From Candidatus Woesearchaeota archaeon (GTDB lineage Archaea; Nanobdellota; Nanobdellia; Woesearchaeales; JAZDKJ01), in the NCBI GenBank assembly GCA_043803105.1, contig JAZDKJ010000012.1, positions 64,001-128,000 of the forward strand: a stretch of DNA of 64,000 nucleotides, written 5' to 3'. This document shows, one piece after another, positions 5,543 to 44,627 of the stretch (position 1 is its first letter; each line of letters opens with the position of its first letter). Under the pieces are notes generated by a model. That model saw only the letters and a list, made by a program, of their open reading frames with translations, searched no databases and had not been told where the DNA came from. The position numbers and the translations under genes are program-made.

Positions 5543-5887
5543 GGTAGGATAGGAGCTTAGCTCTCGCAAAATTGTGAGGAAAGTCCGCCCACACATAGCA
5601 AAGGTTGCGGATTTCGTGACCCTCGCTAGGAACTGGCCACTCTTCGGAGGTCCCGAAAGGGGCGGCTACTGAACAGAAACGAAACGGCCCATTGCACTGG
5701 AATGAGGCAGAAAACGTCCTGGTGACAGGATCGAGCTAACCTGCCGACGACGCTTTGGGATTCGGTGGAACGGCAAGCCCTGGCTTGTGCAAGTCGAAAA
5801 GACGCTTAGTTGAATGCTAAGACAGACCATCGCTTTGTTTTTCGCAAAGTTTGGGTCTGACAGAAGGCGGCTTATTTCTATCCTACC
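5543..5887 (+). ncRNA. rnpB: RNase P RNA
   Basis: Conserved GAGGAAAGTCC and ACAGAAGGCGGCTTAT; terminal helix GGTAGGATAG/CTATCCTACC. Confidence 0.95.
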
Positions 5888-5925
5888 CAAAATTTTTTAA
5901 GCAAGTTAGTATTTTATGATAGAAA

Positions 5926-6102
5926 ATGGCGCAAGACAAGATAACAATGCCGACGAGTACAGCCGGTATTACAAGGTATTTTGACGACTATAAGAGCAAG
6001 ATTGAGTTTAAGCCAGGCCACATCATCATCCTCTGTATCATAGTGATTATTCTCTCGTTGGCTCTGCAGGCTTATGGTTCCTCTCTTCTTAGCATCCCAT
6101 GA
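5926..6102 (+). CDS. secG: Preprotein translocase subunit Sec61beta
   Basis: Manual translation MAQDKITMPTSTAGITRYFDDYKSKIEFKP plus one TM helix; absent from ORF track. Confidence 0.9.
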   Translation: MAQDKITMPTSTAGITRYFDDYKSKIEFKPGHIIILCIIVIILSLALQAYGSSLLSIP

Positions 6103-8081: not shown

Positions 8082-9062
8082 ATGCAAAATATTGACCGAG
8101 ACCTGATATTTCTTTACTCTGAGAACCTGAGGCAAAGGCTGACAGACCTTTCCTCTTTGCTAAAAAAAAGCCCTCAGAGGCTGAGGTATTCCTTGAAAAC
8201 ATTTGAGGATGAGCGTTTTCTGCACAACCCGCATTGTATTTTTGACTATTCTTATTTTGGCCTTATCCTCTTCAGGGTCTACTTTAAGGGAGGTTACATA
8301 AGCGAAAAAGACAAGACGGGCATCATCAAGGAGCTCACCCTTAGCCCTTATGTTGTTTCTGTTTACGAGCTCAGCGGTGAGTTTGATTTGTCTATCGAGT
8401 TAATAGCCCCCAATCCCTCCAAGTTCAACAAGGAATTTAAGAAATTGACTTATCTTATTCCCACACTAAATAATTACAAGGTCCTGCTCAATGTCGTCAC
8501 TCACATCTATCCTAGGTTCTACCTGACAAAGAATAATCTCATAAGGCAGAGGGTCCAGCACGAAATAATTGTTGGCGGTGATAGGACTGTTGTCTCTTTC
8601 AAAGAGTCAGAATTAGAGTTGATAAAACATATCCTCTTTAATCCAAAGGCAAGGATGACCTCGCTTGCTAAGGATGCATCTCTCAACAGGACTACCGCCC
8701 TTTCTGTTTTCAAGAAATTGATAAGAAAGCGAATAATCAAGGGTTTTAAGTATTTTGTAAATACCAATGCTCTGGGTATCTTTCGTTTTCGGCTTTTTCT
8801 CAAGCTGCACAATCTTAGCCAGGAGCGTGAGACAGAGTTTATGGCTTATCTTTCTAAGGTAGATGAGGTGGTGCAGGTAAATAAGACAGTTGGGGATTGG
8901 GACATTGAGATTGACATCGAAAGCTTTAGCAAGGCCACAGTGCGTTCGATTATCATCGGGCTTCGTGAGCAATTTAGCGACTTGATCGAGACTTTCAACA
9001 GCATTGAATTCTATCAATCATACAAGAAAGCATTTCTTCCCACCTATTTGTTTGAATCATGA
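8082..9062 (+). CDS. Duplicated Lrp/AsnC-type wHTH transcriptional regulator
   Basis: Two HTH+RAM modules (GEFDL, GDWDIEID). Confidence 0.85.
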   Translation: MQNIDRDLIFLYSENLRQRLTDLSSLLKKSPQRLRYSLKTFEDERFLHNPHCIFDYSYFGLILFRVYFKGGYISEKDKTGIIKELTLSPYVVSVYELSGEFDLSIELIAPNPSKFNKEFKKLTYLIPTLNNYKVLLNVVTHIYPRFYLTKNNLIRQRVQHEIIVGGDRTVVSFKESELELIKHILFNPKARMTSLAKDASLNRTTALSVFKKLIRKRIIKGFKYFVNTNALGIFRFRLFLKLHNLSQERETEFMAYLSKVDEVVQVNKTVGDWDIEIDIESFSKATVRSIIIGLREQFSDLIETFNSIEFYQSYKKAFLPTYLFES

Positions 9063-9097
9063 CAACATTTTTAAACTCTTTTTGCCTTATAGTGCCC

Positions 9098-9565
9098 ATG
9101 GAAAAGTTTGAGGATTCTTTTCTTAAGGCAAAGCGTCACCTGCAGATCGCTGACCACATGGTTTACGTGACCTATGGCTTGGTGAAAGACCCCAGGCTTT
9201 TGCTCTCAGTTCTTGACAATGTTTTTCTCGCCTTCACCAATTCCATGTCCTCCATTCTGCACTATGAAAACTTATTTAAACGAGTGCCTCCTTTTCCTGA
9301 TAACTTTGAGGCAAAGTTTGCCTTGTTTAGGGAATCCTGCCTCTCAAGGTACAACATACATAAGGACTATCTTCCCTTGATGCGCGAGCTTAAGGGATTG
9401 ATTGTTGCGCACAAGAAAAGCCCTGTCGAGTTCGCGAGAAATGATCGCTTTGTCATCTGTTCGGATGATTACCGGATGCAGGTCATTTCTGTCGAGCAAA
9501 TCAAGTGTTATGTTGCCCAGGCAAAATTGTTTATCCAGGATATAAGCGTGATTATCAAAAGATGA
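9098..9565 (+). CDS. Hypothetical helical protein, paralog 1
   Basis: ADHMVYVT motif shared with the next ORF. Confidence 0.75.
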   Translation: MEKFEDSFLKAKRHLQIADHMVYVTYGLVKDPRLLLSVLDNVFLAFTNSMSSILHYENLFKRVPPFPDNFEAKFALFRESCLSRYNIHKDYLPLMRELKGLIVAHKKSPVEFARNDRFVICSDDYRMQVISVEQIKCYVAQAKLFIQDISVIIKR

Positions 9566-10014
9566 GAGAAGTTTTGGGCGAAGCTAACGAGGAGTTGAAG
9601 CGGGCTGACCATCTTATTTATGTTAGCCTAAAGTATACGAGAAGTGTTGATGTAATTAAGAGTGTGTTTGAGCGTCTTATCAATGCATATAGCATAGTCT
9701 TTCGAGGTCTTCTTGTCAAAGCCAAGGAGAAAAAACTTCTTGCACAGATTCCTACCTCTCCCGGTAGCCAATGTGACTTGGTAAGGGAAATTTACAGGGA
9801 TGATCTGGAGCTGCTTGATTATATCAAGTTTTATCTTCTCCTGCGCAAGATGGATCAAGGAAAATTCACTCGGGCGCATGAGTTTCGGCGAAATGTGACT
9901 ATGACAGTCACTGTGGACAATAAGCAGATGGAAGTCAACATAGACATTGTCACTGAATATTATAAGCGTTCACTGAAATTTTTGGAATATGCAAAGGAGC
10001 GTTTCCTCAGGTAG
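9562..10014 (+). CDS. Hypothetical helical protein, paralog 2
   Basis: ADHLIYVS motif; ATGA overlap with the previous gene. Confidence 0.75.
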   Translation: MREVLGEANEELKRADHLIYVSLKYTRSVDVIKSVFERLINAYSIVFRGLLVKAKEKKLLAQIPTSPGSQCDLVREIYRDDLELLDYIKFYLLLRKMDQGKFTRAHEFRRNVTMTVTVDNKQMEVNIDIVTEYYKRSLKFLEYAKERFLR

Positions 10015-10017
10015 ACA

Positions 10018-10464
10018 ATGCAAAATCGTCTGCGGCGAAAGGGTTGGTCATCAACTGATCTTGCCAAATTGGATAAATATTCTGTCAAGCGCCTGCATTT
10101 GTTTTGGATTGTAATTATTTCTGCAGTTCTGGTTAACATGGTTTTGGCCTTTGTTTTTATCCCTGTGTTTCTGGGTCTAAAGAATGTCCCAATGTTTGCT
10201 CTGGTTATTGCAACTGGTGTCTGCTTTGGCCTTTTGTTCTTCAACCTCTTGAGGAATGTCGATGTGTTTACTTATCGTCATCATCTCGCTGTCGCGATTG
10301 TGCCAGCATTTGCTGCAGTCTCAATTTTCTTCTCGAGCGAGATCGCCAATTCAGTTGCGCCACTTCTGCATAGCATCCGCCATTCATCTGTTATGCTCGG
10401 TTTGTTGTACGCCTTTAGCTTTGAGCTGCCCATTTTCATTGGCTTTCTTTACATCAAGGATTGA
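10018..10464 (+). CDS. Membrane protein (about 4 TM)
   Basis: Hydrophobic segments; N-terminal RLRRKGWS. Confidence 0.7.
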   Translation: MQNRLRRKGWSSTDLAKLDKYSVKRLHLFWIVIISAVLVNMVLAFVFIPVFLGLKNVPMFALVIATGVCFGLLFFNLLRNVDVFTYRHHLAVAIVPAFAAVSIFFSSEIANSVAPLLHSIRHSSVMLGLLYAFSFELPIFIGFLYIKD

Positions 10465-26037: not shown

Positions 26038-26412
26038 CTACTTACTCTCGTATTCTTTTATTGCGTTCTGTAGGGCAGTTGCAGCTAATACCGAGCAGTG
26101 TTTCTTCTGTACAGGAACCTCTCCAAGCCTTTCAAGAACATCCTTGTTTGTTATCTTTTTAGCGTCTTCTAATCTCATTCCCTTTACTATGTCACATAAT
26201 ACATCTGATGAGCTTATTGCCGCAACGCAGCCAAAAGTCTTGACCTTTATGTCCTCTATTATCTTTTCCCCTTTTCTCTCCCCTATCTTTATTGTTATTT
26301 CCATTATATCTCCGCAGCGAGGGTTGCCCACTCTCCCTCGGCCATCAGGCTTCTCTATCTCTCCCATATGCCTTGGGTTCCTGAAGTGTTCAAGCACTTT
26401 CTCAGAGTACAT
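26038..26412 (-). CDS. iscU: Fe-S cluster scaffold IscU/NifU
   Basis: YSEKVLEHFRNPR, GNPRCGD, TFGC, KKHCS. Confidence 0.95.
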   Translation of the reverse strand: MYSEKVLEHFRNPRHMGEIEKPDGRGRVGNPRCGDIMEITIKIGERKGEKIIEDIKVKTFGCVAAISSSDVLCDIVKGMRLEDAKKITNKDVLERLGEVPVQKKHCSVLAATALQNAIKEYESK

Positions 26413-27563
26413 TAGCTCACCTGCAGCGGGCTTATCCGCCTTAATTTTGTTACAGCCTCTTTGACTTTCTCTATTGTGTAATCGATTTCTTGTTCTGTTG
26501 TGTATTTGCTAAGTGTGAATCTTATGGAACCGTGCGCCACCTCATGCCTTAGCCCTATTGCCAAGAGCACATGGCTTGGTGCCAATGATTTTGATGAGCA
26601 CGCAGAGCCTGTTGAGACCTCTATTCCCATGTCATTTAGCATGTAAAGTAATCCTTCTCCTTCTATGAAATTGAATGATATGTTTGCATTGTTGCACAAC
26701 CTCTCTCTCGGCCCGTTAAGTTTTGTGTTTTCTATTGCCAATAATCCGTTGATTAGCTTGTCCCTTAATTTTGCCATCCTTTGGCAGTCTGCTTCGTTTG
26801 CAAGTTCTACAGCCTTTGCGAACCCTACCGCACCCGCAATGTTTTCAGTCCCTGCCCTTAGCCTGAATTCCTGCTCTCCGCCATCAGCCATTCTCTGTAT
26901 TTGTGTTCCTTTTCGTACATACAGCATTCCTATTCCCTTTGGGCCATGTATTTTGTGGCTGCTTGCTGACAAAAGGTCAATGTTCATTTTCTTTACGTCT
27001 ATTGGTACCTTGCAGAATGATTGTACAGCGTCTGTATGAAATATTATCTTGTGCTTTTTGCATATCTTTCCTATTTCCTCTATTGGTTCTATTGTCCCGA
27101 TCTCGTTGTTCGCGTACATTATACTTACTAAGATTGTCCCTTCCTTAATGTTCTTCTCGAGCTCCTTCAGGTCAACAAAACCCTCAGCATCCACATTTAG
27201 GTATGTTACCTCAAATCCTTCCCTTTCTAGTTGCTTGCATGTGTACAAAACCGCATGGTGCTCTATTTTTGTTGTGATTATGTGCCTTCCCTTTTCCTTG
27301 TTTGCGTACGCTACACCCTTTATTGCCAGGTTGTCTGATTCTGTTCCACCGCTTGTGAATATTATCTCCTCAGGCATTGCGTTTATTTTCTGTGCTATTG
27401 TTTTTCTTACATTCTGGAGTGCCTTGCTTGCCTCTTCTCCTATTGAATGCAGTGATGACGCATTGCCATATACCTCTGTGAAGTATGGCATCATTGCCTT
27501 GACCACTTCATGGTCTGTCTTTGTTGTTGCTCCGTTGTCAAGATATACTCTCATTTTAGGCAA
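26412..27563 (-). CDS. iscS: Cysteine desulfurase IscS/NifS
   Basis: YLDNGATT, FTSGGTESDN, HKIHGPKG, STGSACSS. Confidence 0.97.
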   Translation of the reverse strand: MPKMRVYLDNGATTKTDHEVVKAMMPYFTEVYGNASSLHSIGEEASKALQNVRKTIAQKINAMPEEIIFTSGGTESDNLAIKGVAYANKEKGRHIITTKIEHHAVLYTCKQLEREGFEVTYLNVDAEGFVDLKELEKNIKEGTILVSIMYANNEIGTIEPIEEIGKICKKHKIIFHTDAVQSFCKVPIDVKKMNIDLLSASSHKIHGPKGIGMLYVRKGTQIQRMADGGEQEFRLRAGTENIAGAVGFAKAVELANEADCQRMAKLRDKLINGLLAIENTKLNGPRERLCNNANISFNFIEGEGLLYMLNDMGIEVSTGSACSSKSLAPSHVLLAIGLRHEVAHGSIRFTLSKYTTEQEIDYTIEKVKEAVTKLRRISPLQVS

Positions 27564-27913
27564 ATGCAGCAGTCCTTTGGTACCTGCCCGCTTTTCATGT
27601 GTATCCCGCAGACCATCATTTTCACTTCAGTTAGCTTGCATATCCTCTGTGTCTCCTCAAGCACCCCTTTTTTCTCTTCTATGATGTTGCCTGCAGATTT
27701 TTCCACTTCTTTTAGCACTTTTCTGCTGAATACAAGTTGTTTTGCCCTCTTGGACTTTAGGTATTGTGACACTGCCGGCTCTGTTATATGGAGCAATGTA
27801 GCTATCTTCTTCTGGCTGAGCTTGTAATCCTTTAGCATTATCTTTGCAAACTCCCTTCTTATGGCTGGAAGTATGTCCCAGACCTCTATCTCCTGCGGCA
27901 TCTGTTCTTTCAT
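27551..27913 (-). CDS. Archaeal HTH transcriptional regulator with Cys/His-rich C-terminus
   Basis: PQEIEVW.ILPAIR, SQKKIA...AVSQYLKSKR, CGIH...CCIC. Confidence 0.85.
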   Translation of the reverse strand: MKEQMPQEIEVWDILPAIRREFAKIMLKDYKLSQKKIATLLHITEPAVSQYLKSKRAKQLVFSRKVLKEVEKSAGNIIEEKKGVLEETQRICKLTEVKMMVCGIHMKSGQVPKDCCICLK

Positions 27914-27946: not shown

Positions 27947-28501
27947 TTATCTTTTTTCTGCTTGCGATTCAGAATATAGTGTTGTCCTGTACGGACAATT
28001 GTGGCATTTCTCCTTGAACTCTTTCTTGTCCCTGATGCTCTGCTCGCACAGGTTTACAGGAAATACAAAGTCCTTTACTGGGTTTATCACTATTTCCATC
28101 TTAACTCCAGTCACATTCGGATGCGCCCTTAGGTGATAATTTATCACTCCCTCGAGCGTTACCAAGTCAGGGCTCATGAAGAACAAGCAAAGATTCTCTG
28201 TACCGCTCACGATTAACCCATTAAGGAAGAACGCGCACTTGTCAAAGCTTTTTATCACCTTTTCTGTATCAGTTGTTGTGACATCAACCTTCGCAAGGAA
28301 CAGGTTTACTTTCCTGAAGTTCATTCCTATTATCGTTGATATTATTCCCTTCTGTTTGAGTTTGTGTATCCTCATTCCCACTGATGGTTGTGACAATCCT
28401 ACCGTCTCTGCTATCTCGCTCTGCGAGCTGTTTGAGTCAGCCTCAAGCATCGAAATGATCTTTTGGTCTTTGTCGTCTATTCCAAGTTTCTCGTTTAGCA
28501 T
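27947..28501 (-). CDS. Lrp/AsnC family transcriptional regulator
   Basis: IDDKDQKII, SQSEIAETVGLSQPSV..RI..L, C-terminal CHNC. Confidence 0.9.
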   Translation of the reverse strand: MLNEKLGIDDKDQKIISMLEADSNSSQSEIAETVGLSQPSVGMRIHKLKQKGIISTIIGMNFRKVNLFLAKVDVTTTDTEKVIKSFDKCAFFLNGLIVSGTENLCLFFMSPDLVTLEGVINYHLRAHPNVTGVKMEIVINPVKDFVFPVNLCEQSIRDKKEFKEKCHNCPYRTTLYSESQAEKR

Positions 28502-28632
28502 ATTAATTATAAGATTTAGGGTTAAGTATAAAAACTTTTCTTATATTAAAGAGACTTTAAGCAATGAATATTTATGAATTATAGTAAATACTCTTATATA
28601 AAAGCCTGATTATTATGACCTATAGTGAGGTG

Positions 28633-28773
28633 ATGAAAATGGTAGAAACAGAAAGACATTGCCAGATAAGCAGGCAAGATTTCAATAGGGTTACAAGTCA
28701 CCTTAGCCATGATGACCCTGTTGATGCAATTGAGCGCGACTTCATGGAAGACGGCCTAAATGTCTGCCGGTGA
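28633..28773 (+). CDS. Small hypothetical protein (46 aa)
   Basis: GAGGTGA SD-like site; MKMVETERHCQISRQDF...DAIERDFMEDGLNVCR; absent from ORF track. Confidence 0.55.
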   Translation: MKMVETERHCQISRQDFNRVTSHLSHDDPVDAIERDFMEDGLNVCR

Positions 28774-28839
28774 AAAAGTATAAATATGAGTGATGAGAAA
28801 AGTTCCACTTCGAGTGGATGCAAAAAGAGGTTGATAGCT

Positions 28840-29091
28840 ATGACAGAAACATGTTGTGTTTGTAACAAGGAGTTAGACAAAAAAGAGGGGATTATTTCCT
28901 CTACTGGTGTTCTTGTATGTTCAGATGACTGTAAGGAAAAGTTCATGAGTGCTTTGCCCAATCATGGTGAAAGCCAGCTTACAGTGTACAGCAGGGTAAC
29001 TGGTTATTACACCCCTGTTTCTTCATGGAACAAAGGCAAAAGACAGGAGTTCCTTGACAGGAGGACTTACTCCTTGAAGGGGGTTGTCTGA
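28840..29091 (+). CDS. Stand-alone NrdD C-terminal glycyl-radical motif protein with TRASH-like Cys domain, copy 1
   Basis: CCVC...VCSDDC and YSRVTGYYTPVSSWNKGKRQEFLDR; SD GAGGTTGA favours start 28840 (alternative 28786). Confidence 0.85.
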   Translation: MTETCCVCNKELDKKEGIISSTGVLVCSDDCKEKFMSALPNHGESQLTVYSRVTGYYTPVSSWNKGKRQEFLDRRTYSLKGVV

Positions 29092-29372
29092 TGAAATGTG
29101 CTGTTTGTGCTAAACCCCTTGCACCCAAAGAAGGTCTTGTTAGCAATGTCAACCTAGAAGGAAAAGAGCCTGCTGAAGGTGAACAGCCTGTTGTTGTTTG
29201 TTCTGATTCGTGCAGGTCTGGTTTCGAAAAGTCCCTTAAGATGAAAGGTAAACCAATTGTGCATATGTCTCGCATTACAGGCTACATGCAGATTGTTGAG
29301 AATTGGAACAAGGGCAAGCAGCAGGAGTTCTTTGACAGGAAGCGTTATTCCCTTGCTGAGCTTAAAGAATAA
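29091..29372 (+). CDS. Stand-alone NrdD C-terminal glycyl-radical motif protein with TRASH-like Cys domain, copy 2
   Basis: CAVC...VCSDSC and MSRITGYMQIVENWNKGKQQEFFDR; TGATG coupling. Confidence 0.85.
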   Translation: MKCAVCAKPLAPKEGLVSNVNLEGKEPAEGEQPVVVCSDSCRSGFEKSLKMKGKPIVHMSRITGYMQIVENWNKGKQQEFFDRKRYSLAELKE

Positions 29373-29399
29373 TTTTTTTTATGTTTTTAAAATGGGTCA

Positions 29400-34458: not shown

Positions 34459-34749
34459 ATGAAGAAGTATCCCAAGCTGTTGCAGTGTGATAAGAGAGGA
34501 CAAATAGTTATTCCTAAGGATATCCGCTCTGAACTGAAGATCACCGAAGGCACTGGTTTCTGGGTATATTCGATTGATCAAGAGGGTTTGTTCTTCAAGA
34601 AGGTTGACACTCCAACTCTGGAAGACCACAAGGATCTGCTCAAAGAATTAGAGGAAAAGGCTGACAAGATAAAGCTTGACAAGAAGAATATCCAGAAAGC
34701 AGTCCAGAAATACAAGAAAACCAAGGAGGGCAATCTCGACGTCATATGA
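34459..34749 (+). CDS. AbrB/MazE/SpoVT family DNA-binding protein
   Basis: DKRGQIVIPKDIRSELKI.EG. Confidence 0.88.
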   Translation: MKKYPKLLQCDKRGQIVIPKDIRSELKITEGTGFWVYSIDQEGLFFKKVDTPTLEDHKDLLKELEEKADKIKLDKKNIQKAVQKYKKTKEGNLDVI

Positions 34750-37700
34750 GCTTCAATCTTAAAGCTGTGCTCGCCCTGCTCACGTTGCTCTGCTCTCTCT
34801 TTATTGTTTATGCAATTGCCACAAGCCCCAACGGTAATGTTGCCCCTACTTTGGTTAACGTCAGCGGTAATCTCACTTTCAATATTGGCTGGACTGGCTC
34901 AAATGGTGATGCATCGCAGAGAGTTTACATCTGCAGGAATCCTGGCTGTGCTGGCTGCGGTCCAGGCATTTGCTCAAGCCAATACTGCTATGCCTGGAAC
35001 GAGACACTTGCAGCGTCGCCGCGCTCCTTGCAATATCAGGCTCTTCAATCAGATGCCTCTGCCTCTACCACTTGGTACTTTTTCCTCGTAAACACAACAG
35101 GCTCTCAAACATCTTGCACCACCGGTACAGGTTCATTCCAGGTTAATCACAAACCTGTCTTTTCAATAAACTCAATTCTTCCTGCTTCACCACTTACAAC
35201 TAATGATATTACATGCACCGCTACTGTCTCTGACTCTGATTCTGACACCCTCACCAATGTATGTTCTTGGAATGGTTGCACCGGCCCTTGCCCCGCGTGC
35301 TCAATCAGCTGTAACAGCGGCACCTGTACTGCCACTTTGTCGCATACCTCAACACATGCTGGCAACCAGATTTACTGCAATTTCACTTCAAAAGATGCCC
35401 ATGGTCTCGCAAGTGATATTGCAAGCTCCTCGACTGTAACTGTTGCATACAGTGGTGCGCTAACCATTGTTCCTGATAGTGCCTTGCCCAGCGGCAACCT
35501 TGAAATGGGTTCATCCCAAATCTTTAACGCGACCAACGGTGCGGCCCCATACAGTTGGCATATCCATAATGGCTCTGCCTATTGCTCGATTCCTTCAGGC
35601 GTGACCGCCTCCTATATTACGCTTACAGGTAATGCTGTCGGTAACTGCACCCTGAATGTCACAGATGCTGATTCCAGGTCTGACCTTTCTGGTAGGATTC
35701 ATGTTGTTGATACAGTTGCTCCTGCCGCAGTAACAAACCTTCAGGCCTCTGATGTTCTCGGTGATCAGGGCGGTGTGGTCATGGTCTCATGGGTTGTCTC
35801 GACAAACGATAACGAGGTCAACAGGTATTGGATCATGCGCTCAACCCTGCCTGCAAGCGGCTTCGCAAACATCGTGAATGTTTCTCACGGTGTTTCCTCT
35901 TATCAGGATAGTGCAGTAAATGATTTGACTAGATATTATTACCATGTCTGGGCGTGTGACTCTTTGGGCAATTGCGGTAAGACAACCTCGGCTGTGTCAG
36001 CAATTCCAAACGCCCAGCCAAAGATGAAAAGTGTCAACATCACTCCTTCAGTCCTTACCGCATCTACAGATGTGGAGTGTTTGGCTCTGGCATATGATAC
36101 TGATAACGAGTCCTTGTCCATGACCTATCGCTTTGATATAATGGCCTTTCCGCCAGGAGGCTACACTCATAATGTGACTGGCAATGCTGATTGCATTTAT
36201 TTCGGCAGGAACAGTACAGATCAGTACGGTGTGAAACACGCTAACGCCACTACAGAATGCAGGGCCTTGCTCAACCATACGCATATCACTAAGGCCGATA
36301 AGGTAGTGTGTACAATGGTTGCCTCAGACGGTAAGGAAAGCAGTGCCTCGATGAGGATTTCAAAGTCTTATGTTCTGGTGAACAACACTGCGCCTTATGC
36401 CACCAATGTGCGTATTGTTCCTCAAAGCCCGAATGGATCTTCAGTTCTCTCCTGCAATTACACATTTAATGATGTTGACGGGGACTCCGAGGATCTCTCT
36501 GCAGTTAGGTTCAAGTGGTATATCAACAACGAAGGATTAAACCAGTTTGTTGAGGTGCAGAACCAGATATCCAAGACCTTGTCAGGTTTCTTTGACAAGG
36601 ATGACTTGGTGAAGTGTGCTGTTCTGGTCAAAGACCTTGACCTTAGCTGGCTGCATGATGCTGATTATGCTGCCGGTTACTCTAACTCTTCTGTTGTCAA
36701 TATCGTTGACAATGCATTGCCTCAAATCATTGCCTATTCTGTGAACTCTAACAGCACAAAGCCAATTGCTGTGGGACAAAACGTGGTGTTTAATGTTTCC
36801 TGGGTTGATTACGAAGACCCGGCAGATACTGCGCGTCTGCTGGTGTGTGATGCGCGCTCAGGCTCTGAATCCCAGTTCAGCGGTGCCAACACATCTATCA
36901 GCTTTGGTGACACCAATGCAAATTCTCCAAAGTATGTCTGGTTTTACACAAACCAGACCGGCCAATATGTTCAGACCATTGCTGTGAAGCCTTTCAAGTA
37001 TGTGCAGAATAATGAGTGGACTTATGCCCCGGACACCTTGGTGCAGCAGGGAGACAAGTTTATTAGTACCATATTGAGGAATTTCACCTTAGAGGCTTTC
37101 TATGATTCTGACGGCTCAGGCACTTATGATTATGGTGAGCCACTGATCCGGGAAAACAGGACCGGAGCTCAGAGGCTTGTTTTTAACGCAAATCTCGACA
37201 CTATAATCTCTGGTACAACCCCAACTGACGGCTCTGTCTTGATTAACCTTTCTGCCATCGGTTACAGGTATCATGACAGGGATAGCACAAACAACTTTAC
37301 AGCAGTAGATGATATCTATTGGGATCGTGACAACAGCCGCACTATTTCATTGAATGATTACAGGAAGACTATCGTAACCCAAAGCTCTGAGCGAAGGCTC
37401 TCCACCCAGTTCCTTTATGATATTTATGTATATGAGGTTGCCGCTGTGGGAGACACAGAAGTAAATCAAACCTCTGTCCTTATTGCAGAAGACCACAACG
37501 ATCCCTTTACCCTTGGTGTTTACAATTACTTTGTTCCTCAGTACAATGCCCAGCCACTTGCGGGAAAGCATCTTGCCTTCAAGTTCTGTATTGACTCAAA
37601 TGATGATGCTGTCTGTGACAGCGATTCTGATTTCATGAATGACTCTGTTTACGTGCATGCATCCAACAACACTGTCGGCGAGTACAAGGTAACAACATCG

Positions 37701-40700
37701 CAGGGAATTGTCTTTTACAACCCAGATATCAAGCTGAATTACCATGCCTCTTCTGCCTATGGTTGTTCTAATGTTCAGTACTGCAATACTTCCTTGTCTT
37801 CAAATCATGTCCTGAGCTGCAGTTATCAGGCTAAGGATTCTGATCCCTCTAACAACACCTTTGTCTTAAAGGTCTGCGACCAGAAGAATGGCTGCTCTGT
37901 TGAGAGGTCAGGCATTTTCTACGTCAATCACCTTAGTTCTGTTGCCAATGTTAACATAAGTTCATCAAGGGTCAACTACACAGATAGTGCAAACCTCAAC
38001 TGCACTGCTTACGGCCAATATGACCCTGACGGAAACACTGTAGCTCTTTCATACAGGTGGTATCTGTCACGCGGTTCTGGCTACACGCTTTATGACATTC
38101 CGAGCAACAGGATATTGTCTAACGGTAACACCCTAGTAGGGGACCTTTGGAAATGCGAGGTTATTCCAGGTGATGGCTTTGCCCCTGGCTATACCCGCAA
38201 CTCCAGCCCTGTTCTTATCTCAAATGTGAGCTACTCTGAGTCTAGATTGTACATAACGAGTGTTACAGATGATTCCAACAAAACCTCTCCAACTAATGTC
38301 GGCTCAAAGGTCAGTTTCCGTGTTGGTTGGTCCGGATTGCCGAGCCAGGTTAGGGCTTTTGTCTGCAACTCCTCGCAGATAATGGATAATGGTTGCCTTG
38401 ATTTCACTTTCAATAGTACTTCCCTCACTTCGCAAAATCCGCTTCTGTTGACTTACACCGCTCGCCAGGCTGATACTGAAGAAAATTACTGGGTGAAGGT
38501 TTGTGACAATTTTGGAAACTGCTCCAACAATTATCCTGGTGGTTCCACAAAACTGAACTTTTCTGTAAATCACCTTCCCACGATTGCAATAGTCAATATC
38601 AGTGCAAGCCCTGCCAACTATACTGACAATTCTAACCTTAACTGCACTGCTTTCCAGGTTTCAGACGCTGACGCCAACAATGTTCTCCTTACCTACAAAT
38701 GGTTTGTCAAGCGAGGCTCAACCTTTGAGCAGTTCCTTGCTCCAAGCAGCCAGGTGCTGTCAAACTCCAACACTTTTATTGGGGACGTTTGGAAGTGCGA
38801 GGTTCTTCCTTTTGATGGTTATGTCTTTGGTCGTGCAGTAAACTCCTCGCTGGTCACAATACGGAATCTGTCTGCAGAGTCAGCGCTTGCCATCCTTAGC
38901 GTGACTGATGCCTCAAATAGTAGTTTGCCCACAAATGTTGGTGATAAAGTGGCCTTTGAGGTTGCCTGGTCAGGTAGAGCTTCAATAGTCAGGATGTTTG
39001 TCTGCAATTCTTCTGTGATTTATTCTACAGGGTGTGCTGGCTTTACCTTCAACAGTACTGCATTCACCTCAGCTAACCCGATTACCACTACTTACACAGT
39101 CCGCAGCACTGATTTTCAGGAGAATTATTGGGTAAGGCTTTGTGATGTGTACGGCAATTGTTCGCAGGTTTTCCCAAGTGCAGGAAAGACAAACTTCACT
39201 GTAAATCATGGGCCTAACGCCTCTGGCATAAAGGTGTTGACTTTAAGCTCATGGTACGGTTCTGTTATTGTCTGTAATTATACATACAGGGATATTGACC
39301 TTGATGCTGAGTCTGGCTCAGAATACAGATGGTACTTTGATTATGGTAGCGGATTTGAGGAAAATATTGGCGAGACTGAAAAGAACATTACTGACTTCTT
39401 CAGCTTTAGTACCCCTGTCAAGTGTGCTGTGCGAGTTAAGGATTCTCATGGCCTGTCTGATTCAATTTTCAGGAACTCTTCAGCCGTAACCCTGGCATCA
39501 AGCCCTGGTGTGCCCACACTATGGCCTTTCCCTTCAGTGGTTAAGAGCAACAATCTCATAATCATCGGTCATATAGACCAAGTTCCAGCCAACCTTACTG
39601 CATTTGCCAATCAGGGTGTCCTCACCCCAACTCAACAATCCAGTTATGTCACTTCCAATTCCACCCTGTATGGTCAGGCCTACACCGTCTCTGATGTTGC
39701 GAGCGGAAGAAATTATGTTCTTGTTAGCGCTGGTGACAGTAATTTGTTTTCTGCCGGAAGGTTCATACAATTCAATAACCATGATAGGCCTTATTTCCTT
39801 CGTTACGCAATCCTTGGCAAGGCAGACCTGCTTGACCGCACCTTCAGGATCGACTTGGCAGAGAATCTTTCCTCAGATGTCCCAGCCTACACATTCATGT
39901 CAGTGTACAATTCATCTAAGCCCACTGGCTGGTTCAATATTTCGCTCAACTTGTTTAATGGTACCAATACAGTGCGGGTCAAGGCCAGGACCTCTGTGAG
40001 CGACTGGTTCTCCACAGAGAATAGTGTATTTGTTGACTTGTTCCCTCCAGAGCTTATCTTGGGCTCCCTGCCAAGTGTTAGCACGCTAGCAAGAATTACC
40101 CTGTCATTCAACCTCTCAGAAAATTACTACGCTCAACAAGCCTCTAAATTCCTGCTTCTCAAGATTACCAACAAGACAGGGGTCACTAGTTTCCATCCGC
40201 TGAATTTTTCAACCAACGGGTCAGTGTATGCTAATGCAATTCCAAATATAAGTTGCAGTATGGTTAACTTTTCTTACTCTGCATGTTCCGTGATACTCTC
40301 CCTAAAGAACGGCACTTACAATCTCTCCTTCACTCTCAATGATACTGCCGGCCATAGAATCAACGCATCCCGCATATTGGTAGTGAACACCTCTGCGATA
40401 ATCACCACAACTGTCCTTAACGGGTATATTGATGTTCATCACAACTATCTGCCCAGTGACTTTGCCACAACAAACAACCTTACCACAAATTGGACTGTCC
40501 TGACCGGTGTAAGCGCTTACGAATATCGGTTGGATAGATATAATGATTCCTTGTTTGACCGGACCATCATTCCTTGGAAGTCAAATGGTTTGGCAAGGGC
40601 GGTAAACATCACCAACAATGTGAATATTACCAATGGTTATGTCTACAAGTTTGTTGTTAGAGGTAAGCTCTCCTCTGGTGGTTATACTCAGGAGTCTTCA

Positions 40701-43700
40701 AGCAGCGGAATCTTGTACCTTGACAGCACAGCCCCCACTTGCATGAATTGTGTTCACAGCGACGGTGACTACACAAGCTCTAATGACAGCCTCCACTTCT
40801 ATTGGAGTTTTACTGAGCACGAATCAAGGATTGTCCAATACCAGTACGCGATAGGCACAAAGTGTTATCCATTCACAGGCTATACAAGCATAGTTCCAAA
40901 GACTAACACCACCCTGGCATCCGTTACCAGGACAGGCCTCCAACTTATTGACAGTCAGTCATATTGCTTGAGCGTAAAGGCCAGGAATGAGAACCAGATC
41001 TGGAGTCCCTGGAGGTTTGCCAATATTACTGTTGACATTTCGAAGCCCGTTAATGGCAGCATCAGCTACCCTGAAGGTTTTGTTTTCTCGGATGCGATTA
41101 CGGTTTCCTTCCGCGAGGGTAAAGATAATGTTAGTGGCATCAATAGGACTCAGCTTATGGTTGCTTCCCTGCCCCTGGTCGCAAATGATTGCGGTGGGAT
41201 ATACAACTACAACAACTACTTCAATTACACCTCGAATGTGTTGGGCCAGACTTATAGGACTGTTCCACTTGATCAAGGTAGGTGCTACAAGTTCCTCTTC
41301 AAGGTCATCGATAACGCTGGTAATGCTCAGGTATATCCTAAAGGTACTGTAAAGGTGGTGAAGGTTGACAAAACACCCCCGTCAACCTTCACTGTCACCT
41401 TGAACAACAATGCCTTCTACACCCAATCCAATACTCTTAACGTGAGGTGGACACAAAGCCAGGATCCTGAATCTGCGATTACCAAATATGCTTATGCATT
41501 GTTCATGCTTAACGGTAGCCAAGTTACTTCATACAGGAATACATCCTATACATCCTCAACTGCAAGCATAACAGCAGCACTCTTGCACGAAGAGAGTTAT
41601 TATGTCAAGGTAATTGCATTTAACGGCGGCAATGCCTCCACTGCAGTCAATAGCAATTCTGTTCTTTTCCTGGATTTCAATCCTCCCTCGCCCGTTGCAG
41701 TGAGGAAGGTTGACAATGATGTCAACGGCTCTAATGGCTGGCTTGACACTGATGCAGACAATTCCACGAGCATTACTGCTGAGGGTGAACTTGGCATTGA
41801 TTGCATAATCTCAAGGTATAATATTGATTATACTGACTCGCCCCTGCCTTATGTGAGCCAGTGTCTAATTCAAGGGGGAGGTCCAAATATTACGTGCTCC
41901 CTTAACATCACTGACGGAAACTATACCTATTATATCGTGTGCAGAGACACTAACGGCAACTCCCAGGACGCCTCGCTTAGCACGCCAGTGAATTTCATTG
42001 TGGACAAGTATGGCCCCAACATTACTATCATGAAGCCTGCAAGGAACCAGACTGTCGGCGGCAAAGTTGACCTTGATGCAGAAATTCGCGATTATGTGGG
42101 TGTTGATGAGGCAATCTACAGGATAATCAAGATTGATAACACGATAATGGCCAACGGCACCTTGCACTCGCCTTTATGGAATGCCACCTGGAACACCATA
42201 AACAAGAATTACAGCGGTCTGTTCTACTTTTTTGTTTGGGCAAATGATACCCTTGGAAGAAGGTCCAATGCATCGGTCAACTTCTCAATCAATAACAGGG
42301 TTCCCATAGTGGACATTGTCAGCCCTGCTTATGTCAACAATAATTTTACCTTGATAATAAATGCGCAGTTGTTTGTTAATGTGAGTTTCAACATTACAAA
42401 CCGCACCAAGTCGCTGCTTGTCTACAAGAAGAACAACTGGACCTCTATGAGGACCTATTTATCTTGGTCCAATTTAATCAACATAATGAGTCCTGCCTGG
42501 GCAGAGGGCAATTACACCATTAACGCGTGGGCAGTAAACCTTAACAAGAACAAGACGCTTAAGAGTTCTGTTTTCACTGTTGACCTCCATGCTCCAAAGT
42601 ATTCAAACATCTTAAACACATCAGCCAAGACTTATTACAGGACCGGAACCATTAATCTTACCGTTTCTTGGTCTGACAACTTCAAGCTTGGAGCTGTAAA
42701 GTTCCGCCATAATGTCACAGGAAACTGGACTAACGAAACCGCAGTTTTGGCTGGCACTGTTTACCGGGTCCAGATCCCATCTTCAGCCTTGTCGACAGGC
42801 CAAAGCATAGGCTGGTTCTCTTTTGCTAAAGATATGGCCAACAACTCCAATACCTCGATGCCGGTGCGCTCATTCACTTTGGGCAATCGGGCCCCTGTGC
42901 TTGCCGCCTTGCCAAATCAGACAATCAACGCAACCGATACTGTCACAATCATAGCTTCTGCTACTGACCCAGACCAGGACAATCGTACTTACTACATCAA
43001 TGACTCAAGGTTTAATCACGCCTCTCTCTATTCCAATATGTTTAATTGGACTACAGACATTAATGATTCAGGTCTTCATGTTGTTAACCTTACTGCCAGT
43101 GATGGCCGCATCAACGTTTCCAGAAAGGTTTGGATCACGGTCCTGGCTGTAGATGACACTGATGGTGACGGAATTCCAGATTATAAGGAGACAGATTCTG
43201 ACAATGATGGCTTTAACAACACAATAGATTTCCTTAATGGCTATCCAAGCAATGTGAAGACCAACATTGCCAATTTCAATTGTTCCATTGCAGTCAACTC
43301 CACTGCCAAGACTTTCAATTTTGGGCAGCTCTTTACCGGCACCAGGATAATCAATTGCACCAACACATCCTCGCCAATCTTGACCTTCTCCTACAACTTC
43401 AGTAAGCAGGTGACCCTGCACATGATTCGCATCAATGTTACAAGGCAACCCGCAGGCAGTGAGTACGGTTGGATTATTGTTCGAGGACTAAGCCTATTGC
43501 CTGGAACAACCAAGACAGTCTTTGTTAATCATATAAACTCTACCTCTAGTGGTGTCTGCATAAAGGATGCAACCAATGTAACTTCTGTTAGTCAATTTAC
43601 CTCTTCCTGCACTGGCACAAATGAGTTTTTGATTGCTTGCGATGGTCATGAATACTATAGCAAGTATACGTGCACGCTAGCAAATTCTTCCTACAAAGTT

Positions 43701-44627
43701 GATGGCTTAAGATACTCTGCAGTAAAGGAACAGCGTGTTGGCTCATCTCAAGTTCAACAAATAGTCCCTCCTTCAACCGGAGGTGGCGGTGGTGGTGGAG
43801 GTGGCTTGGCCAAGGCAAAACCTCAATGCAGCAATAACCTTGATGATGACCATGATGGCTTAATCGACCTTGCAGACCCAGGTTGCACAGACAAGCTTGA
43901 CAACAGTGAGGCCGAACCTATAGAATCTTGGGTATGTACTGACTGGAGTGAGTGCTCAGCACAAGGTATTCAGAAGCGCAGCTGTGTCGACAAGAACAAC
44001 TGTGGTACCTACAAGTTTGTGCCTGAGGAGCAAAGGGCCTGTAAGCCGGTCTTTCAGGCTGGACTTGAAATTAGTCCCACTTGTTTTGATGGATTGCAGA
44101 ATGACGGGGAGACAGGTCTTGATTGCGGTGGCGTCTGCCCCGCATGCCCGACGTGCGTTGATAACATAAGGAATCAGGGCGAGCTCGGAGTGGATTGCAG
44201 TGGTCCTTGTCCTGCATGTACCCGGCCTCCTGTGGCTGAACAGCCGAAGAAGACTTTCCCATATTCGTTGTTGTTGCTTTCAAGCTTGGTTATATTGATT
44301 GTTGCCGCTGCGGTGTTGTATCCTCAGTTGACAAAGCAGAAAAGAAAGGTCTTTTCTCCCTTGAAGCAGCAGCGCCTCCTGGAGGCTCAAGAATACGTGC
44401 TTTCCAGCCTTCACAATGGCTTGCCCAGGAGTGAGATTGAGGCAGCTCTCCTTGCAAAAGGCTGGCCTGTTGACATGATAAATAAGCTCATCAAGCTGGA
44501 GAACTATGTGCGCGTCGCTTGTTCCAGAGGCCATTCCGGTGAGATGATTTCCTCTTCACTTCAGAAGGTTGGCTGGCAGCCCGAGTTGATTGATGAGATA
44601 CTTGATTATTGCCGTAAAGGCACATAA
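34746..44627 (+). CDS. Giant (3293 aa) membrane-anchored cell-surface protein
   Basis: Signal peptide, repeated Ig/FnIII-like beta-rich modules, many N-x-S/T sequons, DxDxDG Ca-binding motifs, Cys-rich CxDGxxNxGExGxDC repeats, C-terminal TM. Confidence 0.9.
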   Translation: MSFNLKAVLALLTLLCSLFIVYAIATSPNGNVAPTLVNVSGNLTFNIGWTGSNGDASQRVYICRNPGCAGCGPGICSSQYCYAWNETLAASPRSLQYQALQSDASASTTWYFFLVNTTGSQTSCTTGTGSFQVNHKPVFSINSILPASPLTTNDITCTATVSDSDSDTLTNVCSWNGCTGPCPACSISCNSGTCTATLSHTSTHAGNQIYCNFTSKDAHGLASDIASSSTVTVAYSGALTIVPDSALPSGNLEMGSSQIFNATNGAAPYSWHIHNGSAYCSIPSGVTASYITLTGNAVGNCTLNVTDADSRSDLSGRIHVVDTVAPAAVTNLQASDVLGDQGGVVMVSWVVSTNDNEVNRYWIMRSTLPASGFANIVNVSHGVSSYQDSAVNDLTRYYYHVWACDSLGNCGKTTSAVSAIPNAQPKMKSVNITPSVLTASTDVECLALAYDTDNESLSMTYRFDIMAFPPGGYTHNVTGNADCIYFGRNSTDQYGVKHANATTECRALLNHTHITKADKVVCTMVASDGKESSASMRISKSYVLVNNTAPYATNVRIVPQSPNGSSVLSCNYTFNDVDGDSEDLSAVRFKWYINNEGLNQFVEVQNQISKTLSGFFDKDDLVKCAVLVKDLDLSWLHDADYAAGYSNSSVVNIVDNALPQIIAYSVNSNSTKPIAVGQNVVFNVSWVDYEDPADTARLLVCDARSGSESQFSGANTSISFGDTNANSPKYVWFYTNQTGQYVQTIAVKPFKYVQNNEWTYAPDTLVQQGDKFISTILRNFTLEAFYDSDGSGTYDYGEPLIRENRTGAQRLVFNANLDTIISGTTPTDGSVLINLSAIGYRYHDRDSTNNFTAVDDIYWDRDNSRTISLNDYRKTIVTQSSERRLSTQFLYDIYVYEVAAVGDTEVNQTSVLIAEDHNDPFTLGVYNYFVPQYNAQPLAGKHLAFKFCIDSNDDAVCDSDSDFMNDSVYVHASNNTVGEYKVTTSQGIVFYNPDIKLNYHASSAYGCSNVQYCNTSLSSNHVLSCSYQAKDSDPSNNTFVLKVCDQKNGCSVERSGIFYVNHLSSVANVNISSSRVNYTDSANLNCTAYGQYDPDGNTVALSYRWYLSRGSGYTLYDIPSNRILSNGNTLVGDLWKCEVIPGDGFAPGYTRNSSPVLISNVSYSESRLYITSVTDDSNKTSPTNVGSKVSFRVGWSGLPSQVRAFVCNSSQIMDNGCLDFTFNSTSLTSQNPLLLTYTARQADTEENYWVKVCDNFGNCSNNYPGGSTKLNFSVNHLPTIAIVNISASPANYTDNSNLNCTAFQVSDADANNVLLTYKWFVKRGSTFEQFLAPSSQVLSNSNTFIGDVWKCEVLPFDGYVFGRAVNSSLVTIRNLSAESALAILSVTDASNSSLPTNVGDKVAFEVAWSGRASIVRMFVCNSSVIYSTGCAGFTFNSTAFTSANPITTTYTVRSTDFQENYWVRLCDVYGNCSQVFPSAGKTNFTVNHGPNASGIKVLTLSSWYGSVIVCNYTYRDIDLDAESGSEYRWYFDYGSGFEENIGETEKNITDFFSFSTPVKCAVRVKDSHGLSDSIFRNSSAVTLASSPGVPTLWPFPSVVKSNNLIIIGHIDQVPANLTAFANQGVLTPTQQSSYVTSNSTLYGQAYTVSDVASGRNYVLVSAGDSNLFSAGRFIQFNNHDRPYFLRYAILGKADLLDRTFRIDLAENLSSDVPAYTFMSVYNSSKPTGWFNISLNLFNGTNTVRVKARTSVSDWFSTENSVFVDLFPPELILGSLPSVSTLARITLSFNLSENYYAQQASKFLLLKITNKTGVTSFHPLNFSTNGSVYANAIPNISCSMVNFSYSACSVILSLKNGTYNLSFTLNDTAGHRINASRILVVNTSAIITTTVLNGYIDVHHNYLPSDFATTNNLTTNWTVLTGVSAYEYRLDRYNDSLFDRTIIPWKSNGLARAVNITNNVNITNGYVYKFVVRGKLSSGGYTQESSSSGILYLDSTAPTCMNCVHSDGDYTSSNDSLHFYWSFTEHESRIVQYQYAIGTKCYPFTGYTSIVPKTNTTLASVTRTGLQLIDSQSYCLSVKARNENQIWSPWRFANITVDISKPVNGSISYPEGFVFSDAITVSFREGKDNVSGINRTQLMVASLPLVANDCGGIYNYNNYFNYTSNVLGQTYRTVPLDQGRCYKFLFKVIDNAGNAQVYPKGTVKVVKVDKTPPSTFTVTLNNNAFYTQSNTLNVRWTQSQDPESAITKYAYALFMLNGSQVTSYRNTSYTSSTASITAALLHEESYYVKVIAFNGGNASTAVNSNSVLFLDFNPPSPVAVRKVDNDVNGSNGWLDTDADNSTSITAEGELGIDCIISRYNIDYTDSPLPYVSQCLIQGGGPNITCSLNITDGNYTYYIVCRDTNGNSQDASLSTPVNFIVDKYGPNITIMKPARNQTVGGKVDLDAEIRDYVGVDEAIYRIIKIDNTIMANGTLHSPLWNATWNTINKNYSGLFYFFVWANDTLGRRSNASVNFSINNRVPIVDIVSPAYVNNNFTLIINAQLFVNVSFNITNRTKSLLVYKKNNWTSMRTYLSWSNLINIMSPAWAEGNYTINAWAVNLNKNKTLKSSVFTVDLHAPKYSNILNTSAKTYYRTGTINLTVSWSDNFKLGAVKFRHNVTGNWTNETAVLAGTVYRVQIPSSALSTGQSIGWFSFAKDMANNSNTSMPVRSFTLGNRAPVLAALPNQTINATDTVTIIASATDPDQDNRTYYINDSRFNHASLYSNMFNWTTDINDSGLHVVNLTASDGRINVSRKVWITVLAVDDTDGDGIPDYKETDSDNDGFNNTIDFLNGYPSNVKTNIANFNCSIAVNSTAKTFNFGQLFTGTRIINCTNTSSPILTFSYNFSKQVTLHMIRINVTRQPAGSEYGWIIVRGLSLLPGTTKTVFVNHINSTSSGVCIKDATNVTSVSQFTSSCTGTNEFLIACDGHEYYSKYTCTLANSSYKVDGLRYSAVKEQRVGSSQVQQIVPPSTGGGGGGGGGLAKAKPQCSNNLDDDHDGLIDLADPGCTDKLDNSEAEPIESWVCTDWSECSAQGIQKRSCVDKNNCGTYKFVPEEQRACKPVFQAGLEISPTCFDGLQNDGETGLDCGGVCPACPTCVDNIRNQGELGVDCSGPCPACTRPPVAEQPKKTFPYSLLLLSSLVILIVAAAVLYPQLTKQKRKVFSPLKQQRLLEAQEYVLSSLHNGLPRSEIEAALLAKGWPVDMINKLIKLENYVRVACSRGHSGEMISSSLQKVGWQPELIDEILDYCRKGT

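Follow-up and report, generated by a model that had tools for sequence, protein, structure and literature searches.

The DNA under study is a window (the whole stretch that was analysed) of 64,000 nt from the assembly GCA_043803105.1 (genome label G000), contig JAZDKJ010000012.1 (contig C12), and it contains two small adjacent genes on the forward strand whose products resemble the domain that bears the glycyl radical in the class III ribonucleotide reductase (RNR) NrdD, encoded as proteins of their own. The first gene (28840..29091) encodes a stand-alone domain of 83 aa, called mini-1 here, and the second (29091..29372) a paralog of 93 aa, called mini-2, which shares 46% identity with it. The coupling of the two genes described earlier is confirmed, as the stop codon of mini-1 overlaps the start codon of mini-2 by one base (TGATG, GTCTGATGAAA). 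The motifs reported in the preliminary description were also found in both proteins, namely C-x2-C and C-S-D-x-C, then SR(V/I)TGY about 20 residues further on and, after another 6 residues, WNKGKxQEFxDR. The gap between the two cysteine pairs is 18 residues in mini-1 (Cys5, Cys8, Cys27 and Cys31) and 30 residues in mini-2 (Cys3, Cys6, Cys37 and Cys41), which has a 12-residue insert in this finger. The predicted radical site is Gly55 in mini-1 (codon GGT, 29002..29004, + strand), which aligns with the invariant G668 of NrdD, and Gly64 in mini-2 (codon GGC, 29280..29282, + strand). By the residues at and after this loop, mini-1 is of the SRVTGY-TPV type and mini-2 of the SRITGY-Q type.

The assignment of both proteins to the NrdD type is borne out by profile searches. 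The Pfam family NRDD (PF13597, gathering cut-off 26.2 bits) is matched by mini-1 with 39.0 bits (E 5.2e-10) and by mini-2 with 32.3 bits (E 5.8e-8), and NCBIfam NrdD models match both minis as well. The match is confined to the last 30-50 positions of the NRDD profile; for example, residues 27-77 of mini-1 correspond to positions 511-562 of 562, and the ten-stranded NrdD barrel with its finger-loop cysteines is absent from these 83 and 93 aa. Besides, the family profile of the minis matches the C-terminal radical domains of solved NrdDs, such as those of T. maritima (4COI/4U3E, E 5e-5) and P. copri (8P23), and neither mini matches PF01228, the Gly_radical family of the pyruvate formate-lyase (PFL) type, at E up to 1. 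AlphaFold2 models (predicted local distance difference test scores of 71.9 and 75.5) give the two minis a common layout, in which two cysteine knuckles and a helix are followed by a beta-hairpin and a C-terminal helix, with Gly55 or Gly64 placed at the tip of the hairpin.

The genome G000 is a Woesearchaeota-type metagenome-assembled genome (MAG) of 1.56 Mb in 13 contigs, 96.5% complete, and a MAG labelled Candidatus Woesearchaeota is its relative in the same genus. Within the window neither an NrdD barrel nor NrdG is encoded, as had been said from its letters alone, and the only barrels and the only NrdG-grade match of the genome lie on another contig, C5. NrdD-a (L002 934-3246) is a protein of 770 aa with an ATP-cone, and NrdD-b (L001 1174-3264) is a cone-less protein of 696 aa with a double-Cys finger loop; both cover the NRDD profile in full (1-562 of 562). 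The same stretch of C5 as NrdD-b also encodes a thymidylate-synthase-like protein with a fused pterin-binding DUF4346 domain (L001 12-1208), a thioredoxin-like protein of 82 aa (L001 3265-3513) and NrdG (L001 3615-4370; TIGR02495, 168 bits against a cut-off of 131). Thus two nrdD genes and one nrdG gene are present in the genome. It had been proposed to check whether the nrdD of the genome keeps an RxxGY tail, and it turned out that both NrdDs retain their own CxxC...CxxC ribbon and radical glycine (C636/C639/C650/C653 and G668 in NrdD-b). In the 96.5%-complete genome we found no PFL-like barrel, no PF01228 radical domain and no large subunit of class I or class II RNR, so as far as such a genome shows, the two NrdDs are its only glycyl-radical barrels and its only RNRs. 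Another glycyl radical enzyme as the client of the minis was considered and rejected, because G000 has no PFL-like barrel. One further suggestion of the preliminary description, that the minis are the radical subunit of a split NrdD, is not supported for this genome: neither barrel is tail-less, as both reach profile position 562 and keep G668 or its equivalent, and the minis lie on another contig. In related Woesearchaeota, two loci (L023 and L027) contain three tandem full-length nrdD genes each.

Each mini resembles one of the two NrdD paralogs. Complete tandem pairs were found at five loci (the window, L017, L018, L115 and L116), and all five consist of one SRVTGY-TP(V/I) member and one SRITGY-Q member. 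The same signatures divide the full-length enzymes: NrdDs of about 700 aa (from G000, G042 and other Woesearchaeota) carry SRVTGY(I/Y)TPV, and the ATP-cone NrdDs of about 770 aa (from G000, G041 and G042) carry SRITGYYQ(R/K)V. We computed a maximum likelihood tree of the 29-residue loop and tail for 45 rows, made up of 28 minis and 17 NrdDs from archaea, which left out the minis of the candidate phyla radiation (CPR) type (P0081, P0115, P0137 and P0159), all bacterial-type NrdDs and also P0005, P0025, P0038, P0040 and P0136. In this tree a branch with values of 99/96 unites all mini-1-type tails (15 of 15) with 9 TPV-type NrdD tails in a clade of 24 rows. By eye, the relic of a second cysteine knuckle in the minis, described below, follows the paralog too (LPNHG against CPNC; LKMKG against CPKCK). 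As for copy numbers, G000 and G042 have two NrdDs and two minis, while the Saccharibacteria genome G043 (0.5 Mb) has one of each; its mini is flanked by an intact nrdD on one side and nrdG on the other and is nearly a letter-for-letter copy of the loop of its own NrdD.

We therefore read the minis, with a probability of about one half, as paralog-specific spare radical domains for the two NrdDs, similar to GrcA, so that mini-1 would be dedicated to the cone-less NrdD of about 700 aa and mini-2 to the ATP-cone NrdD of about 770 aa. This reading is favoured because the barrels are intact and the minis are extra copies, which are matched to the paralogs, conserved and separately regulated. It also passes the tests in silico that had been named for it, since nrdD and nrdG are present, the NrdDs keep their tails and the minis are not fragments of a broken gene.

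The conservation of the minis bears directly on this last point. A word-indexed search returned 12 stand-alone relatives of 83-98 aa with 58-70% identity, one of which is labelled Woesearchaeota, and an exhaustive profile search returned 3477 proteins at E <= 1e-3. Among the best 150 of these 3477, about 17 span both finger and tail, and most of the others are tail-only proteins of 42-110 aa, some of which are possibly fragments at contig edges. As a lead only, clusters of 83-88 aa with NRDD as their sole domain exist in a protein atlas, from archaea, viruses and Moraniibacteriota. The 14 aligned mini sequences all share the four cysteines and S51, R52, T54, G55, Y56, W63, N64, G66, K67, E70 and R74, and K65 is conserved to 90% or more. 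The invariant loop and tail residues of 13 full-length NrdDs are S664, R665, T667, G668, Y669, W676, N677, K678, G679, K680, E683 and R687, and these 12 positions correspond one to one to the 11 loop and tail invariants of the minis plus K65. Between G000 and its same-genus relative, the proportion of synonymous differences (pS) is 0.69-0.86, near saturation, and that of nonsynonymous differences (pN) is 0.23-0.24; taken over all values obtained, pN runs from 0.23 to 0.36. For mini-2, where the ratio can be computed against the same-genus ortholog, dN/dS is about 0.14. On these substitution figures both copies are under purifying selection and are maintained genes, not debris. The earlier view that the copies are intact and diverged, which argues against decay, is upheld by the invariant functional residues, the purifying selection and the conserved relatives, and recent fragments of one broken nrdD are not what was found. 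Orthologs of mini-2 exist in all four other complete pairs (L017, L018, L115 and L116). Two more loci are cut by contig ends (L114 and L118), and two others hold singletons (L117 and L123).

These data leave little room for the idea that the minis are leftovers of a broken nrdD, or mobile or viral cargo with no role in the host. On viral contigs (L193-L272) an NrdD tail in an open frame of at most 130 aa is indeed frequent (56 of 80 loci), a few of them with CxxC pairs of their own (L232 and L242). One singleton finger-mini (L117) has DUF559 and RRXRR genes on its two sides, and orphan tail open reading frames (ORFs) of 42-60 aa occur in Lentisphaeria, Victivallis and a spirochaete (L043, L047, L064 and L069), those of Lentisphaeria among prophage-like genes. 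However, the first knuckle of the finger is covered in none of the 80 viral loci, the five complete pairs come from different assemblies with conserved gene order, regulator and flanks (HerA and PpiC), and the functional residues are invariant under purifying selection. Moreover, the GC content of the pair equals that of the window (0.430 against 0.436), and a new N-terminal knuckle has been gained. An origin as debris or cargo is thus very improbable and already largely refuted. The orphan tail ORFs mentioned above sit among Laminin_G_3, DUF1353 and SLT genes that look like prophage tail and lysis modules. Phage records gave three matches; the sole one that reaches the finger, from Methanobacterium virus PhiF1, belongs to the coding sequence of a full-length NrdD rather than to a mini.

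Detached NrdD tails are widespread outside the viruses as well. In 16 of 17 genome junctions the barrel ORF ends before the loop and a tail ORF of 42-100 aa follows behind a Shine-Dalgarno-like sequence, and nrdG comes after the tail ORF in 15 of these 16 split junctions. The 17th junction, from Saccharibacteria, has an intact nrdD and an additional mini. Such split nrdD genes are found in Margulisiibacteriota, Anaerolineae, Moraniibacteriota, Thermodesulfobacterium, Thermoplasmatota and Brevinema. The split barrel ORFs end after a stretch resembling C-P-x-H-G-Y...C-P-Y-E-H (L024-L094, L111 and L112), and at one locus (L084) a patatin-like gene lies between barrel and tail.

We also surveyed 301 genomes of the phylum of the window, each at least 90% complete. 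An NrdD-tail match occurs in 67 of them, with 77 matches in all: 4 are finger-minis (G000 and G231), 35, from 33 genomes, lie in frames of 39-101 aa, and the other 38 have frames of 599 aa or longer, a single one of these being from an unpublished genome (G267). About half of the NrdD-bearing genomes sampled in the phylum have a split nrdD. Two genomes (G092 and G181) that stood out as odd in this survey were dismissed, since both contain ordinary full-length NrdDs. In all near-complete short-tail genomes checked (5 of 5), the sole barrel breaks off at position 525-528 of the 562 in the profile, with the adjoining short ORF supplying the remainder, and class I or II RNR was not found in three of these five (G017, a closed single contig, G011 and G175). 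The detached tail in those genomes would then, by inference from these sequences, be the working radical subunit, and its action in trans is plausible because a split nrdD is sometimes the sole RNR found in a near-complete genome.

The split enzymes give weight to the most serious rival, in which the minis serve NrdD routinely in trans, as subunits or modulators, and damage is not the trigger. They might swap with or cap the resident radical domain, tune the activity, supply several barrels from one activated small protein or keep pre-formed radicals in store. The split nrdD genes show that a detached tail can be a normal working subunit, and the pair has no consistent linkage to oxygen-defence genes. 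The radical domain of NrdD is described in part of one study as dynamic and allosterically controlled (PMC11226230), and GrcA, to judge by the title of a paper, makes inactive full-length PFL active again in vivo. On the other hand, each NrdD still has its own radical domain in fully conserved form, so that a second routine subunit seems redundant, and the pair is rare among relatives with the same NrdDs, as would be expected of an accessory more than of a core subunit. We consider this role unlikely, but it carries more weight than the other alternatives.

The N-terminal half of the minis, where the four invariant cysteines form a predicted metal site, had been described as a TRASH/YHS-like domain that replaces the usual zinc ribbon. 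This description stands in part: the spacing and the fold do show a likeness, though a weak one, while the Pfam matches fall below their cut-offs and the alignments point to the NrdD ribbon itself. Treble clefs of the TRASH/YHS type have the spacing Cx2C-x(19-22)-Cx3C. Compared with the Cys4 site of NrdD, the cysteines of the minis are rearranged to Cx2C-x18-Cx3C (x30 in mini-2). The Pfam models of the TRASH/YHS clan remain below cut-off in the minis (zf-FLZ with 18.9 bits against 23.4, DUF2116 with 17.1 against 26.8), as does TRASH_HVO_1752_C (11.4 bits against 27, E 0.39). In a fold comparison with VIA-align, residues 1-44 of the model gave small 60S ribosomal chains with Z 4.0-4.6 (root-mean-square deviation 2.2 A for 40 residues), then the "TRASH domain of ZMYM5" (2DAS, Z 4.0) and an FCS finger (2W0T, Z 3.0), all below Z 5, and Foldseek gave no match in the PDB at E <= 0.001, one weaker match being a chain labelled L24E. 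By HMMER against the T. maritima NrdD and by tblastn against another NrdD of the phylum, C27...C31 fall on the first CxxC knuckle of NrdD, and in the same two alignments the conserved LPN(R/H)G of the minis falls on the second, CPxCG knuckle. Because two independent alignments place this relic on the CPxCG of NrdD, the finger is best read as a remodelled NrdD ribbon, from which the second knuckle would have disappeared and to which a new CxxC would have been added at the N-terminus. An acquired TRASH domain was rejected as the origin of the finger for the same relic. The zinc site of NrdD is reportedly needed for radical formation.

Next to the pair, several signals and genes suggest a separately controlled unit. 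An alternative upstream ATG at 28786 would extend mini-1 to 101 aa, but this start is disfavoured: the 83-aa form is likelier because the relatives begin at a Met equivalent to that of 28840, and the promoter-like signals favour 28840 as well. By eye, a TATA-like element (TATAAATA, 28779..28786, + strand), which overlaps the upstream ATG, is a candidate archaeal promoter element for the pair, GAGGT stands 8 nt ahead of the start at 28840, and T-runs just after the stop of mini-2 (29373..29388, + strand) form a candidate archaeal terminator. A small ORF further upstream (28615..28773, + strand) has 52 aa as listed, though a start at 28636, where an ATG stands behind GAGGTGAT, is likelier and gives about 45 aa. 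It has a counterpart at the same place in L017 (3125-3259; tblastn, 38% over 47 aa, E 5.6e-9), and in L018 (about 5830-5970) a small ORF of about 46 aa has the same position and the same Shine-Dalgarno-like motif, a likeness seen by eye only. This small ORF has no Pfam match, carries, in its versions from the window and from L017, one Cys close to either end and may be the first gene of a three-gene operon with the mini pair.

Divergently from the pair, the window encodes a helix-turn-helix regulator of the AsnC/Lrp type (27947..28501, - strand; Pfam HTH_AsnC-type, E 2e-11) with a C-terminal Cys pair. Its orthologs share 72% identity in L017 and 52% in L018, the gene is also divergent in L114 and L115, and generally a divergent AsnC-type regulator is present at most loci whose upstream side is visible (5 of 7). 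The regulator has a conserved C-terminal C-x2-C and two further conserved cysteines. It is followed by a 120-aa protein with a C-terminal Cys cluster and no Pfam match (27551..27913, - strand), and beyond these lie, as context only, a NifS-like cysteine desulfurase (26412..27563, - strand) and a NifU/IscU scaffold (26038..26412, - strand), both assigned by Pfam; in L114 a cysteine desulfurase likewise lies beyond the regulator. Either the regulator or the 120-aa protein could be a redox or Fe-S sensor ahead of the NifS/NifU genes. On the downstream side, the window, L017, L115 and L118 have a gene for a HerA-like ATPase in convergent orientation to the pair. In L018 the genes directly behind the pair encode three rubrerythrins, a glutaredoxin and a fusion of a flavoprotein with desulfoferrodoxin, the last being one ORF (8886-10193) that joins a thioredoxin-reductase-like flavoprotein (Pyr_redox_2) to a desulfoferrodoxin with its N-terminal and superoxide reductase (SOR) domains. 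A GILT-like thiol reductase comes after the pair in L116. The redox and Fe-S context of the pair is thus suggestive but inconsistent across loci. Further downstream in the window lies an ORF of 3293 aa (34746-44627, + strand).

Fe-S assembly genes near the pair, in the window and in L114, would suit another explanation, that the minis act on NrdG and not on NrdD, either as decoy or buffer substrates that, for example, protect its 4Fe-4S cluster or limit the cleavage of S-adenosylmethionine (SAM), or as Zn-finger regulators with an NrdG-binding tag. The minis do retain exactly the loop that the activase must recognise. A decoy, however, needs no two versions that track the two NrdDs, as there is only one NrdG-grade activase, and the WNKGK..E..R tail, which is as strictly conserved as the loop, is placed on the surface of the barrel in solved NrdDs by the same structural work (PMC11226230). 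Hence we hold a function directed at NrdG to be improbable.

The sequences show the anatomy of the minis, their conservation, the intact nrdD and nrdG genes, the paralog matching and the natural split enzymes. The role as spare radical domains can be put as a sequence of events, which we infer by analogy with YfiD and PFL and from published accounts of the NrdD radical domain as a mobile module. To our knowledge, oxygen destroys all glycyl radical enzymes by cleaving the backbone at the radical glycine. First, the single radical-SAM activase NrdG would take a hydrogen from Gly55 or Gly64 of a free mini, whose Cys4 finger would keep the small domain folded and recognisable. Once an NrdD has had its backbone cut by oxygen at its own radical glycine, or its resident domain is without a radical, the beta-hairpin of the mini would enter the barrel and bring the glycyl radical beside the finger-loop cysteines. 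Nucleotide reduction could then restart without remaking the enzyme of 700 aa. The expression of the minis would probably be under the divergent AsnC-type regulator.

Several points weigh against these spare domains. An NrdD cleaved by oxygen would retain its own zinc ribbon and half of the loop, which would need displacing. The finger of the minis is unlike the native ribbon, a difficulty for their docking on the barrel, and the confidence of the AlphaFold2 models is only moderate. Oxygen-defence genes are neighbours at only one of the five complete pairs (L018), with the thiol reductase at a second (L116); the single rubrerythrin of G000 lies on a different contig, and no desulfoferrodoxin was found in this genome. 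At the Woesearchaeota loci the pair is unlinked to nrdD and nrdG, which in G000 lie on a different contig from it. In the tail tree the remaining 13 minis group with five NrdD-a-type tails on a weaker branch (88/95), and three mixed-signature NrdD tails fall outside the 24-row clade. With 29 columns and an unsettled bootstrap, this tree is an indication, not proof, and matching tails could stem from descent or gene conversion and not from functional coupling. Besides, the finger-type pair was found in only 2 of the 301 phylum genomes (G000 and G231, the latter being the genome of L018) and in 2 of 41 same-order relatives; it is rare and therefore not a general solution.

A June 2026 review states, in the passages that concern repair, that spare-part proteins are identified for formate lyases only and that those for other glycyl radical enzymes are "yet to be determined" (PMC13450708). 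In our literature search, with subscription-only papers and supplements outside its scope, neither a detached or split radical domain of NrdD nor a spare part for NrdD was found described, and no paper on NrdD in Woesearchaeota came up. The spare-part principle is known for PFL only, and from their sequences the minis are strong candidates for a tandem, paralog-matched and finger-bearing form of it beside a dedicated regulator. Tentatively, and as a joint claim that falls somewhat short of an even chance, this locus might represent the first system that repairs a glycyl radical enzyme besides PFL, and the first in archaea, a regulated operon with two isoenzyme-specific radical cartridges that keep the sole RNRs working after oxygen. 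As part of the same claim, it might also be one tip of a large undescribed set of free-standing NrdD radical domains that spans DPANN archaea and CPR bacteria, a number of bacterial phyla and many viruses, and in which the radical domain is exchangeable and not tied to the enzyme.

The locus makes the question of spare parts outside PFL directly testable, with two small and easily expressed proteins, two NrdDs and one NrdG, and with the prediction that mini-1 works with the cone-less and mini-2 with the ATP-cone enzyme. If the reading as spare domains is true, then with class III RNR as the only route to deoxynucleotides the device decides whether DNA synthesis survives transient oxygen, which bears on the life of DPANN archaea at oxic-anoxic boundaries. 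The frequent split nrdD would also alter the annotation of class III RNR, as short "fragments" labelled anaerobic RNR may be real subunits, and the viral tail-only ORFs suggest that viruses may supply radical domains to host enzymes.

Compared with known systems, the minis are closest in logic to GrcA/YfiD of E. coli and Y06I of phage T4, which, as parts of two papers present them, are likewise small stand-alone radical domains that exist besides an intact enzyme and its activase, and for GrcA/YfiD the proposed course is also activation by the activase of the enzyme followed by replacement of the damaged domain (PMC13450708, PMC8683613). Unlike GrcA/YfiD, the minis lack a PF01228 match, are not homologous to it at the level of the family and copy NrdD, not PFL; in place of the disordered N-terminal half of YfiD they have a Cys4 finger; and they are two paralog-matched copies in a DPANN archaeon, with a role predicted from sequence. 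The TRASH, FCS and L24e treble clefs share with the minis the Cx2C...Cx3C spacing and weak fold matches, but all Pfam models of the clan stay below cut-off. In the C-terminal radical domain of NrdD (4COI/4U3E, 8P23 and phage T4) the same loop and tail follow a metal site bound by cysteines, and the models of the minis suggest a similar hairpin with the glycine at its tip and a helix after it. The minis differ from this domain in being detached, in having LPNxG in place of the second CPxCG knuckle and in their extra N-terminal CxxC. The NrdD domain is itself described, in parts of two studies, as a mobile module that must exit the barrel for activation (PMC11226230, PMC4493059), and a split RNR is in print for class II, as one paper mentions in part (NrdJa/NrdJb, PMC9669993). 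The split nrdD genes share with the minis a loop and tail encoded as a separate small protein. However, their small ORF lies between barrel and nrdG and is the sole radical domain of the enzyme, whereas the minis of G000 are extra copies encoded elsewhere in the genome, with a full Cys4 finger and with both barrels intact.

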